From IMG/VR virus record IMGVR_UViG_3300020037_005233, positions 32,001-96,000 of that record: 64,000 nucleotides of DNA; one strand, given 5' to 3'. A model generated the notes under the pieces. That model did no database searches and had not been told where the DNA came from. It worked only from the letters and a program-made list of their open reading frames with translations. A program made the translations under genes and the position numbers. Position 1 is the stretch's first letter, and every line of letters begins with the position of its first letter. The stretch is from a virus (taxonomy: Duplodnaviria > Caudoviricetes). This document shows positions 33,257-41,350 of the stretch, piece by piece.

Positions 33257-33276
33257 GTGAAAGTTCCTCCGTTATG

Positions 33277-36176: not shown

Positions 36177-36386
36177 CTAGTCTTCGTCAGATTCGCTGTA
36201 TGAACCGTAGCTGTCTTCTTCATCAGACGCCTCGGCTTCGTTAAATTGATCAACTAGGTCGACTAACTCATCGTCTTCGCTGTCTTCAAATAATTCTGTG
36301 TCTGCGGTTAGATCCTCGACACTCTCGTCTGACTTGTTCATAATCGCTTCCGCAGCATCTTCAAGGCTTCGTTCACGTGGACTCAT
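36177..36386 (-). CDS. Highly acidic small protein
   Basis: Asp/Glu-rich 69 aa. Confidence 0.6.
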   Translation of the reverse strand: MSPRERSLEDAAEAIMNKSDESVEDLTADTELFEDSEDDELVDLVDQFNEAEASDEEDSYGSYSESDED

Positions 36387-36599
36387 TTAATCTCCCTCGG
36401 ATAACATTTTCTGACATCTTGTTATAAAAACTTCGAGGATTTTCTTTCTCGCGTCAACACCTAAAGCGCCAAGGACAAGGAAGTCACCCTCACCAGCCAC
36501 TTGATTCATCGCGTTAGTAATAGCCTGGGCCGCGTGTGCCTCGATGCAGGCTTCCACCTGTGCAAGCATGACGTCGATAGGAGGGAGGTCGTTGTCCAT
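36387..36599 (-). CDS. Hypothetical protein
   Basis: Coupled ORF. Confidence 0.55.
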   Translation of the reverse strand: MDNDLPPIDVMLAQVEACIEAHAAQAITNAMNQVAGEGDFLVLGALGVDARKKILEVFITRCQKMLSEGD

Positions 36600-36600
36600 A

Positions 36601-36990
36601 TCAGGCCTTGGTGCTACTGATCCTGATCACACGGTCGCCTACTACAGTGCTTAGGATTGTGGTAGATGTCAGAGATACACCGAAAACTTCTTTGTTCTCG
36701 GTGATGACAGACACGTCAGCGGGCCTGATGTTCTTAACCACTGTAAGTAGTTCTGTCGCCGGATCCACTGTGTCCAGGGCGGCCGACAACGCCTTGCCCG
36801 CTGCCTCGGCATGAGCCAAGAGGTCTGCGCCAGGAGTTTTAATCTCGGCATAACCATCCAAAAACAGGGCCTTTGCCTTGTCTGTGTACATCCACTTAAA
36901 ATTAGCAGCCTTCTTGTGTCTTGAGCACGCGTCGTTGTACTTGGTGTTAAACTCATCAATAATCGTTTGAAGTTCTTGTGGGTAGTCCAT
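36601..36990 (-). CDS. Hypothetical protein
   Basis: AGGA SD. Confidence 0.6.
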   Translation of the reverse strand: MDYPQELQTIIDEFNTKYNDACSRHKKAANFKWMYTDKAKALFLDGYAEIKTPGADLLAHAEAAGKALSAALDTVDPATELLTVVKNIRPADVSVITENKEVFGVSLTSTTILSTVVGDRVIRISSTKA

Positions 36991-37044
36991 GTGTTTCCTA
37001 ATAGTTAAAATGGAGCGAACACCTCACGGCGCCCACCCCATTAG

Positions 37045-38163
37045 TTAATAAAGTGCGCTATCGGCTGACTGAGATGAAGGCAATTTGCCGTCCCCAGCCT
37101 GCGGTAATAGCTCGGCCGGTGCCTCAAATACTGGAGGTGCTGGCTTCTTAGCTTCTTTGAGTTTCTTCTGAAGTACTGCAACCATAGAGTTTACGTCTGC
37201 AAACGCCTTGGCTGTAGCAACCCTGATTTCCTCACTGTTTGTCTTACCTGTCAACTGGCAGAGCTGTTCAAATAATGGTGCCGCAGCCTCATGATTTGCG
37301 CGCTCTCTTAAGATATCCTCTTCCGTTGGTTGTGGAGCAGACAGCATCGTCTGAGTCGCTGGTGCTTCTAACTGCGCCACTTCAGGAGAAGGGAGTGAGA
37401 ATCCAACAACTCGAGTGTATGGTCTTCCTCTAAGAGCCTGTAGTGATAGCATGTCTTCTGCACTGATTTTTTCACCATACTCTCTAATATAGGTTTCAAA
37501 ATCCACGGACTCGACATGAACTACTGGTGCAGGTCTTGTGCCTTTCTTACCGTTATACTCGTATGGAACAGGAACTTCTTTTTTAAACATTCTGAAGATC
37601 TGACCGCTGAGCTTGCCACCATACCTGATCTGCGCTTTTTGTAGTGCAGACACGGTATTCATAAGTGCTAGGATGGACGCACTGTCTAAGGTGAAAACCG
37701 CACCCATAGAATAGTGTGGGATCATTACATTAAGAAACATATGCTCACCGCACATACTCTTAATGTAATCGGGGCAAGATTTGTACTGGCACTTACGTAC
37801 TCTAGCTCCCTGTACATGTGGGAACGGCACCTGAGACACACCAGGATCGTTGCCAAAAGCCATGTAAGCTGCAACAGCTCCCATGTCGTTACCGTCTAAG
37901 TCTTTAGCCCCGTGCATACTCTTACAAACGAGCTCATGCTTTTTGTAGTATCTGAGGTCATCCTGCATAGACTCCTCAGGTACATCTGAGTGCAGGGTGA
38001 ACATAATTGAAGTAGGGGTTTCGCCTAAAATTGGAATCAGCTGTGGGGCATCATGCAGCAGAAAATGTGGTGAGTTTTTTGGATTCCCTTTTTCGTCTTT
38101 GAATCCGGCCCTAATTTTTCCGTCGCGTCTGAGTAGTGGTTTATCTGTTAGTCCAATGATCAT
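37045..38163 (-). CDS. Phage recombination protein (gp3-like family)
   Basis: MIIGLTD..L.R.GKIR.G start, LVCKS, C...CP, GAVFTLDS. Confidence 0.6.
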   Translation of the reverse strand: MIIGLTDKPLLRRDGKIRAGFKDEKGNPKNSPHFLLHDAPQLIPILGETPTSIMFTLHSDVPEESMQDDLRYYKKHELVCKSMHGAKDLDGNDMGAVAAYMAFGNDPGVSQVPFPHVQGARVRKCQYKSCPDYIKSMCGEHMFLNVMIPHYSMGAVFTLDSASILALMNTVSALQKAQIRYGGKLSGQIFRMFKKEVPVPYEYNGKKGTRPAPVVHVESVDFETYIREYGEKISAEDMLSLQALRGRPYTRVVGFSLPSPEVAQLEAPATQTMLSAPQPTEEDILRERANHEAAAPLFEQLCQLTGKTNSEEIRVATAKAFADVNSMVAVLQKKLKEAKKPAPPVFEAPAELLPQAGDGKLPSSQSADSALY

Positions 38164-39375
38164 ATAAAAATACCTCTCCCATAATAATGGGCAGAACCGA
38201 AGGAAGCTCGTTGCGAAACAACGTCTTCCGTTTTAAGGTAGGCGTTGTGCCTACCAAAGAATAAACCTATGCTAGTACGTGAAGTCAAACTAAAACCTAC
38301 CGCAAAACAAACCAAGGCTATTGATACAGCTCTTTGGCAGATGGTGTCTGTGTATAATACTGCGTTAGCAAAATGCTTCATAAGACTGCGTGCAGGACAT
38401 ATACCCACTCCTTTTGACCTGATAGCTATGTTTACAGGGCACGGGAAAAAGGCAGGTTTGAACCAGAACGCTATTCAGATGTGCTGCTACTCTGTTAGGG
38501 AGGCTTTTGACCGCTGGCTCCATCAAGATAATAGTGGTAAACGCCTCGGAAAGCCCCGTAAGAAGTCTGCTAGAAACAAAATAACTACGATCATCTACGG
38601 GCAGGCATCTAGAGTAACACATCCTAAAGACCGGCGTGTAAACGTACCGGGGTTTGGTAAGATCAGGTGTTCCGGTAATGAAATACCGGCGGGTAAGGTA
38701 ATGGGTGGTCGCCTTGTACGCCGCGCCTCTGGTTATTACTTCCAGTTTGTGGTTGATATTGTCCACACACAAGAACTCGTGAGCGACGCTCCTGCGGTAG
38801 GTATTGACCCGGGATTTAGTTCTCTTCTCACCCTCTCTGATGGAAGGAAGTTTGAGAATCCTAGAGAGCTTCGAAAAACGGCGGCAAGGCTTGCACAGGC
38901 ACAGCGAGGCAAAAACAAAAAACTTGTGGCTAGAATACACGAGCGTCTGCAAAGACAGCGTAAAGACAGGAACCACAAAATAAGTCATGATGTTGTAAAG
39001 AACTATGCCGAGATTTACGCTTCCAAAGACTCTTTTAAAGGTATGCAAACCCTTTTCGGAAAGAGTGTGACAGAAGCAAGTCTTGGGAGTTTGCTCGCAA
39101 TGATCGCCTATAAATCGCAGTCCTGCGGTAGGCAATTCAGGTGGGTAAACTCTAGGAACACCACGCGAACGTGCTCGGCCTGTTATTCCCTTGCAGGACC
39201 AACTGGGCTAAGTATGCTTGCGGTGAGGACGTGGGGATGTGGGTGTGGTGCCCAGCATGATCGGGATATTAATGCCGCTCAAGTGATCCTACGTTCCGGG
39301 CAGGGTATGCCCGCCAGCGTGAAAGTTTATTCTGTCGTCTGAGCGCTATGCCTGGGCCACATATTTGCATATCAC
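38164..39375 (+). mobile_element. Solo-TnpB (IS1341-like, IS200/IS605 family) element
   Basis: Antisense to operon; structured left end; TCAC-ended right end; deletion rejoins promoter/SD to the recombination gene ATG; boundaries uncertain by a few nt. Confidence 0.7.
38245..39342 (+). CDS. tnpB: RNA-guided endonuclease TnpB family
   Basis: KLKPT..Q HTH, VGIDPG RuvC-I, TTRTCSAC/CGCG zinc finger, HDRDINAA RuvC-III; RuvC-II Glu appears replaced. Confidence 0.9.
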   Translation: MCLPKNKPMLVREVKLKPTAKQTKAIDTALWQMVSVYNTALAKCFIRLRAGHIPTPFDLIAMFTGHGKKAGLNQNAIQMCCYSVREAFDRWLHQDNSGKRLGKPRKKSARNKITTIIYGQASRVTHPKDRRVNVPGFGKIRCSGNEIPAGKVMGGRLVRRASGYYFQFVVDIVHTQELVSDAPAVGIDPGFSSLLTLSDGRKFENPRELRKTAARLAQAQRGKNKKLVARIHERLQRQRKDRNHKISHDVVKNYAEIYASKDSFKGMQTLFGKSVTEASLGSLLAMIAYKSQSCGRQFRWVNSRNTTRTCSACYSLAGPTGLSMLAVRTWGCGCGAQHDRDINAAQVILRSGQGMPASVKVYSVV

Positions 39376-39394
39376 TAATGTTTCTCCTAATAAA

Positions 39395-39423
39395 CGTATA
39401 ACCTAAATTAGGCATTTTTTGCC
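39395..39423 (-). promoter_or_regulatory. Phage promoter copy 7 with orphan SD (AGGAG at 39384-39388)
   Basis: GGCAAA-N17-TATACG. Confidence 0.7.
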
Positions 39424-39441
39424 TAATTAGTCAACAGGTAT

Positions 39442-39966
39442 TCAAAGTCCCGCGGCTCTAATAATCTGTTCAACGCGCTGCTTGCTTAGCCCAAACCGTT
39501 TACCTAGTTTCTGCATCGTTGTCCTGTGCTCTAGGTTTAGCTTCCAGAGCTGTACAATCTCACTATCCCTGTGTGCTCCTGAAATCCCGTAAGAGATGCT
39601 GTGGGCGGGATTATGACACCACTCGTTTCCGCAAGTCATCTTACCCCAATGGTGCCCAGCATTATCGTACCCGAGATAAAGCAGCACCGCTCTTTTTGGT
39701 TTTATGTTGGGTTTTGTACCGTTCAGATAGACGCTGTCTGTGGGGCCCGTCCATTTAATGCACTGCCCGTCCTTGTAAACGATGTAACCCTCTACCTTGT
39801 CTTTCCAGCTATTGGTGCTGTATTTAGCAAGAGGTACATCAGTCTTTAAAGACACTCTATAGACGGTGCCGTAGGGAATCCCTAGCCGTTTAGCTATAGA
39901 AGTCCTTCCCTCTCCTGCTTTTAGTGCACGCACTATCTCAGGCGCGTTAGACGTATACAGAGCCAC
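39442..39966 (-). CDS. HTH + His-Me/HNH-like zinc loop + HTH protein (homing endonuclease-like)
   Basis: SIAKRLGIPYGTVY; CIKWTG...CGNEWCHNPAH; LGKRFGLSKQRVEQII. Confidence 0.6.
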   Translation of the reverse strand: MALYTSNAPEIVRALKAGEGRTSIAKRLGIPYGTVYRVSLKTDVPLAKYSTNSWKDKVEGYIVYKDGQCIKWTGPTDSVYLNGTKPNIKPKRAVLLYLGYDNAGHHWGKMTCGNEWCHNPAHSISYGISGAHRDSEIVQLWKLNLEHRTTMQKLGKRFGLSKQRVEQIIRAAGL

Positions 39967-40137
39967 TTACTCAGCCTCTAGCTCGGTAATGCGCGCCTTA
40001 ACAACTTCCATCTCTGACTCGATACGGCGTACATCCTCAGCCGCTGTCTTCACCATAGTAGCAGCACGCAGATCATTGTACTTAGTTCTTAGTTCGGTCA
40101 GTAACTCAGCCTTTTCAACGCCTAATTTTTCCATCAT
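39967..40137 (-). CDS. Small coiled-coil protein with VKTA site
   Basis: MEKLGV...MVKTAA. Confidence 0.55.
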   Translation of the reverse strand: MMEKLGVEKAELLTELRTKYNDLRAATMVKTAAEDVRRIESEMEVVKARITELEAE

Positions 40138-40188
40138 ATGTGTATCCCCTGACAAAACTAAACACTGCCAGGCTACACAAAGTCAAGT

Positions 40189-40416
40189 TTACTGGAGATC
40201 TTTTTTAGGTGGAGGATCAAGCTGGATCTGGATGTTGTCGTCGACAATAAGTTTTAGTGTCGTGCCTATGATTAGGAGTGCCTCTGATAACCTAAGCTGG
40301 TTATCTAAAATCAACCTATTTTGCTCGAGGCTATTATTGGAGAACTGGCCTTTTTCAACTGCCTCCGCCAACTTCTCGTGAATCTGATTGAACGCCTGAA
40401 GTATGTCCGTTGCCAT
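40189..40416 (-). CDS. Hypothetical protein
   Basis: GGGAG SD. Confidence 0.55.
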   Translation of the reverse strand: MATDILQAFNQIHEKLAEAVEKGQFSNNSLEQNRLILDNQLRLSEALLIIGTTLKLIVDDNIQIQLDPPPKKDLQ

Positions 40417-40741
40417 AGGGCTCCCCTTCCATGGTGTCCTGGCTGTAAGCTAGAAGCACCCCATCCTTCAATCCCTGAAGGTAGGATTCCTGAAGGCTTG
40501 CCACTAAGGCTACCTCCAGCGCTGTCTTGGCTATTGCTGAGGCACCGGGGTGCCCCTGCTTTATGGTATCACGGGCAGTGCGTAGAGGTCTAAAACTACT
40601 GTTAAGGCTTGTGGACTCAAATATAGCCCTTCCGTTCTCGTCATGTGGGAGTTTGCAGGCACGGCATAGCAAAAAAACTGTTTGGTCCATGCGATTTATA
40701 GTGTCTAAACCACCCTGACACTTCTTGCACAGATGCGTCAT
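40355..40741 (-). CDS. Zn-ribbon hypothetical protein
   Basis: CKKC...CRAC. Confidence 0.55.
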   Translation of the reverse strand: MTHLCKKCQGGLDTINRMDQTVFLLCRACKLPHDENGRAIFESTSLNSSFRPLRTARDTIKQGHPGASAIAKTALEVALVASLQESYLQGLKDGVLLAYSQDTMEGEPYGNGHTSGVQSDSREVGGGS

Positions 40742-41334
40742 GAGAAGAAGCCACCGTCCTCGTCTCCTGTGTGCTCCACAATTTTTACCCTGGGAGCTGC
40801 CGAGTTAAACGCCATGGCTGCTGCTTTAGCGCCGCCGGACTTACCGTAGCCACCCAACTTCTTAGGGGCGGCAACACCTAAAGATGCGTCTAGGAATGCG
40901 TCTGCGTCCTCTCCAACGTCTTTAGTGTTGTAATCAAATGCAGACTTAAACGCCTCTTCTTCAGCGTCTACAGGAGCCTGTTTTCTCACAACCTTAGGCG
41001 CTGCTTTGGGGGCGTGATCTTCTTCAACCTGCTCTGCAAGAGACTTAACTTCTTCGTCGGCTCCGTCACCACTAAGTTCGTGCCCACTGACTTCGTCATG
41101 GAACACCTCTTCTTGCTCAGGCTGAGCTACGTCTGACTTCTCAGCTAACTCCTGAAACAGCGGGCGCTCTCCAGCATAGGCTCCAAGCTCTCTTAAGCAC
41201 TCATCGGTGAGCATACGATCAATCAGGCCTGTGAGCACTCCCTCGATCTCTGGTACTGTCTTCCCAGTAAGCATCGCGTATGCTTTAAGTTTTCGCAGCG
41301 TGCCATCGTTCAGTGTAAGTGTTAATTCTGCCAT
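40738..41334 (-). CDS. Ribbon-helix-helix-like protein with acidic tail
   Basis: ELTLTLNDGTLRKLKAYAMLTGKT. Confidence 0.55.
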   Translation of the reverse strand: MAELTLTLNDGTLRKLKAYAMLTGKTVPEIEGVLTGLIDRMLTDECLRELGAYAGERPLFQELAEKSDVAQPEQEEVFHDEVSGHELSGDGADEEVKSLAEQVEEDHAPKAAPKVVRKQAPVDAEEEAFKSAFDYNTKDVGEDADAFLDASLGVAAPKKLGGYGKSGGAKAAAMAFNSAAPRVKIVEHTGDEDGGFFS

Positions 41335-41350
41335 AATGTATCTCCTAAAG

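Follow-up and report, generated by a model that had tools for sequence, protein, structure and literature searches.

The question raised by this locus is how a TnpB element can lie one base before the start codon of an intact phage gene, and by what route such an element, with no transposase beside it, would spread. The window analysed here is a 64,000-nucleotide stretch, bases 32001–96000 of a 113,446-bp IMG/VR virus record whose estimated completeness is 73%. Its source is an uncultured phage with a genome of roughly 155 kb, and the record has genes for a family A DNA polymerase, an SNF2 helicase and a PD-(D/E)XK nuclease.

The phage genes around the element

The gene next to the element is Gp3-like (PF18897, Pfam match; 37045–38163, minus strand). 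It is intact, encodes 372 aa and starts with the ATG at 38163–38161, the same start position as in P0186, its homologue from alleles that lack the element. On the other side of the element lies a second minus-strand gene (39442–39966) with matches to HTH and sigma-70 region-4-like domains, which in the empty alleles directly precedes the Gp3-like gene. The tnpB gene is antisense to both of these neighbours, and its element is present in a single copy in the 113-kb record. Between the element and the HTH gene, an orphaned promoter-like repeat together with the 5′ leader of the Gp3-like gene occupies 39376–39430 (minus strand); in empty alleles this segment is contiguous with the Gp3-like ATG, and it will have driven that gene until the element came in. 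The promoter-like repeat and its Shine–Dalgarno (SD) sequence at 39376–39424 belong to a 50-nt family of six copies (family D1), found in the window at positions 670, 4358, 5082, 33257, 39375 and 60098. Two of the copies, those at 33257 and 60098, have their first base immediately before the ATG of a gene. The architecture of the family is GGCAAAAA, a TATAAG-like element and AGGAG, in this order, and it is found upstream of several minus-strand genes. We also note that the gene for the sigma-r4-like protein sits just upstream of the copy at 39375.

Empty alleles and the boundaries of the insertion

Searching the phage collection with the DNA of 37000–40500, in near and distant modes, gave zero matches, and scans of viral contigs with single proteins, Gp3-like or TnpB, gave none either. 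Related phages were reached via the 90% cluster of the Gp3-like protein, which holds variants from other assemblies. Three element-free alleles with clean junctions were found (L005, L006 and L099); the earlier note on this DNA, made from the sequence alone, had pointed to such alleles as one way to check its proposal. L005 (68 kb) and L006 carry P0186, with the HTH gene followed by the Gp3-like gene and nothing between them, and in their flanks they share about 83% identity with the window. The third contig, L099, has 94% identity across the Gp3-like gene.

In the sense of the phage genes the empty site reads AGGAGAAACATTA-T-ATG in L005 and L006 and AGGAGAAACATTA-C-ATG in L099, while in the occupied allele the element is interposed between CATTA and TATG. 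Because these two blocks are contiguous in the empty alleles and split in the window, the insert is placed at 38165–39375 (plus strand, 1,211 bp). A lone phage base, 38164, is left between the element and the ATG; on the plus strand it is A in the window and in L005 and L006, and G in L099. The element is antisense to the Gp3-like gene, one base before its ATG and inside the 14-nt gap between ribosome-binding site (RBS) and start codon. The earlier note had drawn the insert at about 38164–39375: the empty allele is essentially the predicted one, and only the left edge has to be moved by one base, since 38164 belongs to the phage. Its prediction that deletion of the element would join the promoter repeat and AGGAG to the Gp3-like ATG was correct, as the two are contiguous in all three empty alleles.

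Three nucleotides, TAA, are common to both junctions, being shared by the first bases of the element and the right flank, so that the block can be drawn anywhere from 38165–39375 to 38168–39378. The right ends of relatives share a TGTACCA-plus-one-base terminus that aligns with CATATCA-C in the window, and we favour 39375 as the last base of the element on account of this alignment. The right end of the element does finish in TCAC, as had been noticed before. An inverted-repeat scan of the element found no terminal inverted repeats, and there is no target duplication beyond the 3-nt TAA ambiguity. Exact-pattern scans of viral contigs, with the empty target of the window and with the empty site of the relative L007, found no match.

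Occurrence of the occupied allele

The element is known from one site in one phage lineage. Its copies are identical over 36265–41160 in three JGI contigs. The occupied allele with an intact Gp3-like ORF recurs in at least three more JGI samples, and two other studies, one of wastewater and one a ‘marine plankton’ project, yielded contigs with it; this indicates that the insertion is tolerated. Contigs of four runs aligned to 37000–40500 contained no empty, joined or excised form of the same strain; coverage in X2, X3 and X5 was partial, and contigs drop rare variants. In the X2 and X3 contigs, which come from one study, the element is 100% identical to the window and the Gp3-like segment 37556–37879 shares 12 variants with L099. 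Co-conversion was considered for this haplotype and dropped, since the sequence is window-like on both sides of the patch, which makes it a patchy mosaic. An L099-like patch flanked by window-like sequence suggests that recombination around the locus is frequent.

Left end and the presumed replacement ribosome-binding site

The left end of the element (38165–38268, plus strand, 104 nt) consists of an element-specific tip followed by a core and a hairpin that are conserved in relatives, according to a left-end alignment. The tip form of the family is TGAGG-CCTTTCC. The tip of the window element has an A/T run and then CCTCTCCC, which on the minus strand presents an outward GGGAGAGG at 38173–38180, 9 nt before the Gp3-like ATG (8 of these are A/T of the element), as the earlier note had described. 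We presume this to be a replacement RBS. Its predicted pairing energy is −8.7 kcal/mol, as compared to −7.3 kcal/mol for the displaced AGGAG, with a generic anti-SD that may not be that of the host. With the same generic sequence only 1.2% of random positions are equally strong, about 80% of the phage's own gene starts are outranked, and the tips of relatives reach −1.5 to −6.2 kcal/mol, i.e. have a weaker SD. These values support the idea of a replacement SD, its role in translation being presumed. The pyrimidine motif CCTYTCC is found in the left ends of relatives whatever their context, and the SD may owe something to chance, since a motif of this kind is typical of left ends in the family. 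No terminator-like site was found on the minus strand inside the element.

An 82-codon antisense ORF (38160–38408, minus strand) runs through the left end, and its TGA overlaps the Gp3-like ATG (ATGA). Translational coupling of this ORF to the Gp3-like gene is doubtful; its own GTG start is without a good RBS.

Predicted guide RNA scaffold, presumed guide and candidate TAM

The predicted guide RNA (omega RNA) scaffold extends over 39190–39375 (plus strand; the 5′ limit is approximate) and comprises the 3′ end of tnpB and a 33-nt tail. Among seven clade members with 58–70% protein identity, nucleotide conservation runs 33 nt beyond the tnpB stop codon and ends at the common terminus. The RNAalifold consensus of the scaffold, made with seven relatives, has 31 pairs, 12 of them with compensatory changes; the fold of the single sequence is unremarkable (z = 0.57). 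An Rfam search of 37900–39700 at E ≤ 1 returned no family, RAGATH-18 included. The features of IS607-type TnpB systems, a serine recombinase TnpA and a RAGATH-18-type guide RNA, were thus not found for this element. In a separate observation, 14 nt just before the tnpB start (38253–38266) are 86% complementary to 39325–39338, at the 3′ end of the ORF within the scaffold, and pairing of the scaffold with the tnpB leader could be possible.

The right flank (39376–39395, plus strand) is the presumed guide and target, the same in the empty alleles, and it includes the displaced AGGAG (39388–39384, minus strand). It lies in the promoter-like repeat and leader of the Gp3-like gene, with the SD on the side of the guide and the start codon on that of the left-flank motif. 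Counted from 39376, 57 nt are identical in L005, and in L099 all 34 nt available are identical, in phages that otherwise differ by 6–17%. The proposal that the right flank supplies the guide is supported by an exact match in the empty alleles. The left flank is TCATA in the window and in L005 and TCATG in L099. When further relatives are placed by alignment of the left-end tip, it is TCATG in L007 and TCAGA in L091, and GCGT is found in L092 and at the proven junction of L085. The TAM of the window element is probably TCATR, judging from few flanks, with GCGT in two relatives. This is close to the TCAT suggested earlier, which fits the window and its empty alleles and does not extend to L092 and L085.

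A target with TAM is absent from the phage's own genome, where the nearest guide-like site, at 41334, has two mismatches and no TCAT. At that site (41334–41349) the leader of the gene 40738–41334 matches 16 nt of the guide with two mismatches and is preceded by TGCCA.

The TnpB protein

The tnpB gene (38269–39342, plus strand) is intact and encodes 357 aa, with the Pfam domains OrfB_IS605 (PF01385, 45.6 bits) and Cas12f1-like_TNB (PF07282, 57.2 bits), each above its cut-off. The best solved relatives are ISDra2 TnpB (PDB 8EXA/8H1J; E = 2e-22) and an AI-designed nuclease, with PDB 8IAZ more distant than ISDra2 TnpB (E = 1.5e-9). In the alignment to ISDra2 TnpB the RuvC-I and RuvC-III aspartates are retained as D180 and D333, and the position of the canonical RuvC-II glutamate is Ser252. 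Of 120 homologues most have Ser at position 252, all have Asp254, and 109 have Glu269. The zinc-finger cysteines C302, C305, C324 and C326 are invariant, and the full C-terminus is kept.

Loss of the canonical glutamate, with an alternative conserved glutamate downstream, is also the pattern of the RuvC-II-rearranged (RIIr) TnpB branches, which are predicted to be active via the alternative residue (PMC10691335). By analogy with these ‘rearranged’ branches, conserved Glu269 fits the role of a substitute RuvC-II glutamate. As the canonical residue is missing, nuclease activity of this TnpB rests on that analogy. The window protein has Ser at the canonical position, where Gly is described for RIIr-5, and it is likened to these branches by their described pattern. 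One of them, RIIr-4, was reported to be virus-specific (Altae-Tran et al. 2023, PMC10691335); similarly, the close relatives of the window TnpB are found in phage-like contexts, in metagenome and viral contigs. In species-representative bacterial genomes no close relatives were found, only TnpBs of 42–51% identity, and these genomes therefore yield neither a host nor a TnpA partner. The absence of TnpA stated in the earlier note holds for the 113-kb record (73% complete), in which neither a Y1 transposase (PF01797) nor a serine recombinase (PF00239) was matched.

We noticed in addition that tnpB, read antisense in the codon-aligned frame, is open over 280–361 codons in five of the eight clade members, namely the window (38365–39207, minus strand), L007, L083, L087 and L091. 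In four of these five the open stretch exceeds that of at least 95% of 300 synonymous-codon shuffles, and the tnpB of L087 has zero TTA, CTA or TCA codons. A translated ‘TnpB_rev’ ORF has been reported in a cyanophage preprint (10.64898/2026.02.14.705889). The open frame may be read as a gene, as an anti-polarity device or as an effect of codon bias.

Insertion sites of related elements

The elements of close relatives lie mostly within phage gene blocks and are often antisense. L085, which is 71% identical, has a proven empty allele, L098, and there the element directly follows the TAA of a 148-aa gene; a terminator lies beyond it, and the next ATG is 83 nt away. In L007 the element is between divergent genes, and in L091 and the P0011 contig it is co-oriented with the neighbouring genes. 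In L087 about 29 nt separate the ATG of the gene from the start of the conserved left-end tip, so that the gene keeps its native SD. The targeting of start codons, proposed in the earlier note, is not supported by this comparison as a property of the family: L085 is at a stop codon, and L007, L091, P0011 and L087 are elsewhere. A reading in which L081, L083 and L085 abut antisense start codons was rejected, as L098 shows the junction of L085 to be at a stop codon. In L081 the conserved right-end terminus is missing, and 127 nt separate the start of tnpB from the ATG of the neighbour, whose SD is for this reason probably native.

The pair L085:2764–3917 and L098:2400–2500 is a second occupied and empty pair, in another phage. 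The left end of the L085 element is only about 55 nt long, its right end is intact, and an 8-nt TTAAGTGG lies on both sides. Such a flanking repeat, unexpected for IS200/IS605, may reflect one-ended homing resolved by microhomology, or a deletion between repeats. Among more distant relatives (43–47% identity), L019, L029, L030, L041, L042 and L051 have, about 150 nt upstream of tnpB, a small co-oriented ORF that shows the zinc-ribbon pattern CxxC...CPKC, and L031, L038 and L048 have a small lysine-rich ORF. The right ends of the distant relatives finish in GAGGTTCAA, unlike those of the clade of the window.

Probable RNA-guided homing and alternative explanations

As far as comparison of alleles can tell, the locus probably holds a transposase-less, non-autonomous IS200/IS605-like element of TnpB and guide RNA that acts as an RNA-guided homing element. 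We consider this the best reading because the guide is exact in the empty alleles and the left flank there is TCATA or TCATG. TnpB with its guide RNA would cleave the intact site, in related phages that co-infect or following excision, and the element would be copied in by recombination with an occupied genome. The target would be the most conserved local sequence of the phage, i.e. promoter, leader and start codon. Transcripts of the Gp3-like gene would begin at the orphaned promoter and run across the element, and their translation would use GGGAGAGG and the A/T spacer in the reshaped tip, which would make the insertion tolerable.

The single site and lineage, the identity of the three JGI contigs and the contigs of four runs with no empty or joined form are also consistent with a passive relic that arrived once, by a host transposase acting in trans or by illegitimate recombination, and has been clonal since. 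TnpB would then be of no use for spread, and the SD-like motif would be a by-product of the conserved left end, for which the presence of CCTYTCC in relatives regardless of context speaks. We regard such a history as rather unlikely, though a real competitor, since the ORF is intact with all motifs conserved, the scaffold covaries, the tip departs from relatives precisely where a strong SD and an A/T spacer arise, and relatives still carry perfect targets. Cutting might instead have been selected mainly to destroy or exclude element-free competitors at co-infection, copying being a side effect. A target in the essential, invariant promoter–start region of related phages would suit a weapon of this kind, and a dual outcome has been described for phage homing endonucleases (review PMC13565253). 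Sequence cannot separate this possibility from homing, but flanks that are 83–94% identical still permit recombinational repair, and we give it little credence.

The Ser at the position of the canonical RuvC-II Glu could alternatively mark a nuclease-dead, TldR-like binder of sites with TCATR plus guide, which would act as a repressor at the Gp3-like promoter region in relatives or as a regulator of another kind. TldRs are told by loss of catalytic residues or by C-terminal truncation; here D180 and D333 of RuvC-I and RuvC-III, the zinc finger and the C-terminus are all kept, the alternative glutamate is present in 109 of 120 homologues, and the phage's own genome has no target with TAM. We find this explanation highly improbable. 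Returning to RNA-guided homing, a more elaborate version would have the element reshaped for life in a phage operon and adapted to the SD–ATG gap. The tip would have evolved from TGAGG-CCTTTCC into an A/T spacer and GGGAGAGG, a portable RBS, and tnpB would avoid the three antisense-stop codons so that ribosomes can follow the phage transcript through. This version is tentative, and we would not yet lean on it.

Relation to known systems and significance

IS200/IS605 elements with TnpB and omega RNA (OMEGA), e.g. ISDra2, are known for transposon homing (Karvelis 2021, PMC8612924; Meers et al., 10.1101/2023.03.14.532601). The window element resembles the ISDra2 type in the domain order of TnpB, in a predicted scaffold that takes in the 3′ end of tnpB and stops at the right boundary, in a presumed guide that is the right flank, in a short candidate motif abutting the left end, and in having neither inverted ends nor a target duplication. 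It differs in that it is phage-borne, has no TnpA in the record and has the canonical RuvC-II Glu replaced. Moreover, all targets that can be seen for it lie in alleles of other phages, not in a sister chromosome.

A TnpB-driven, TnpA-independent IS605 ‘gene drive’ has been reported in multicopy plasmids (PMC11870625), and ‘non-restorative transposon homing’ in co-infecting phages has been put forward as a theoretical possibility only (review PMC13565253). Both share with the mode proposed here a spread by cutting element-free homologous molecules without TnpA. Compared with the theoretical case, the window locus is a natural polymorphism of occupied and empty alleles with a perfect guide match. 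The free-standing homing endonuclease genes of T4-like phages (Seg, Mob) are likewise intergenic between conserved genes, have a target that is invariant in relatives and need phage recombination. In contrast to Seg and Mob, recognition here would be by an RNA guide and a short motif, and the interruption itself would mark self from non-self.

Homing by TnpB has been demonstrated on bacterial chromosomes and on plasmids, but for phages it is a proposal only. With a pair of occupied and empty alleles in which the guide, the candidate TAM TCATR and the target are defined to the base, TnpB homing in phages becomes directly testable. A compact (357 aa) viral TnpB with rearranged RuvC-II and a defined guide boundary is also a candidate for biochemistry. 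The locus illustrates how a gene may escape inactivation by an element that lies one base upstream of its start codon, by way of a new, presumed RBS.
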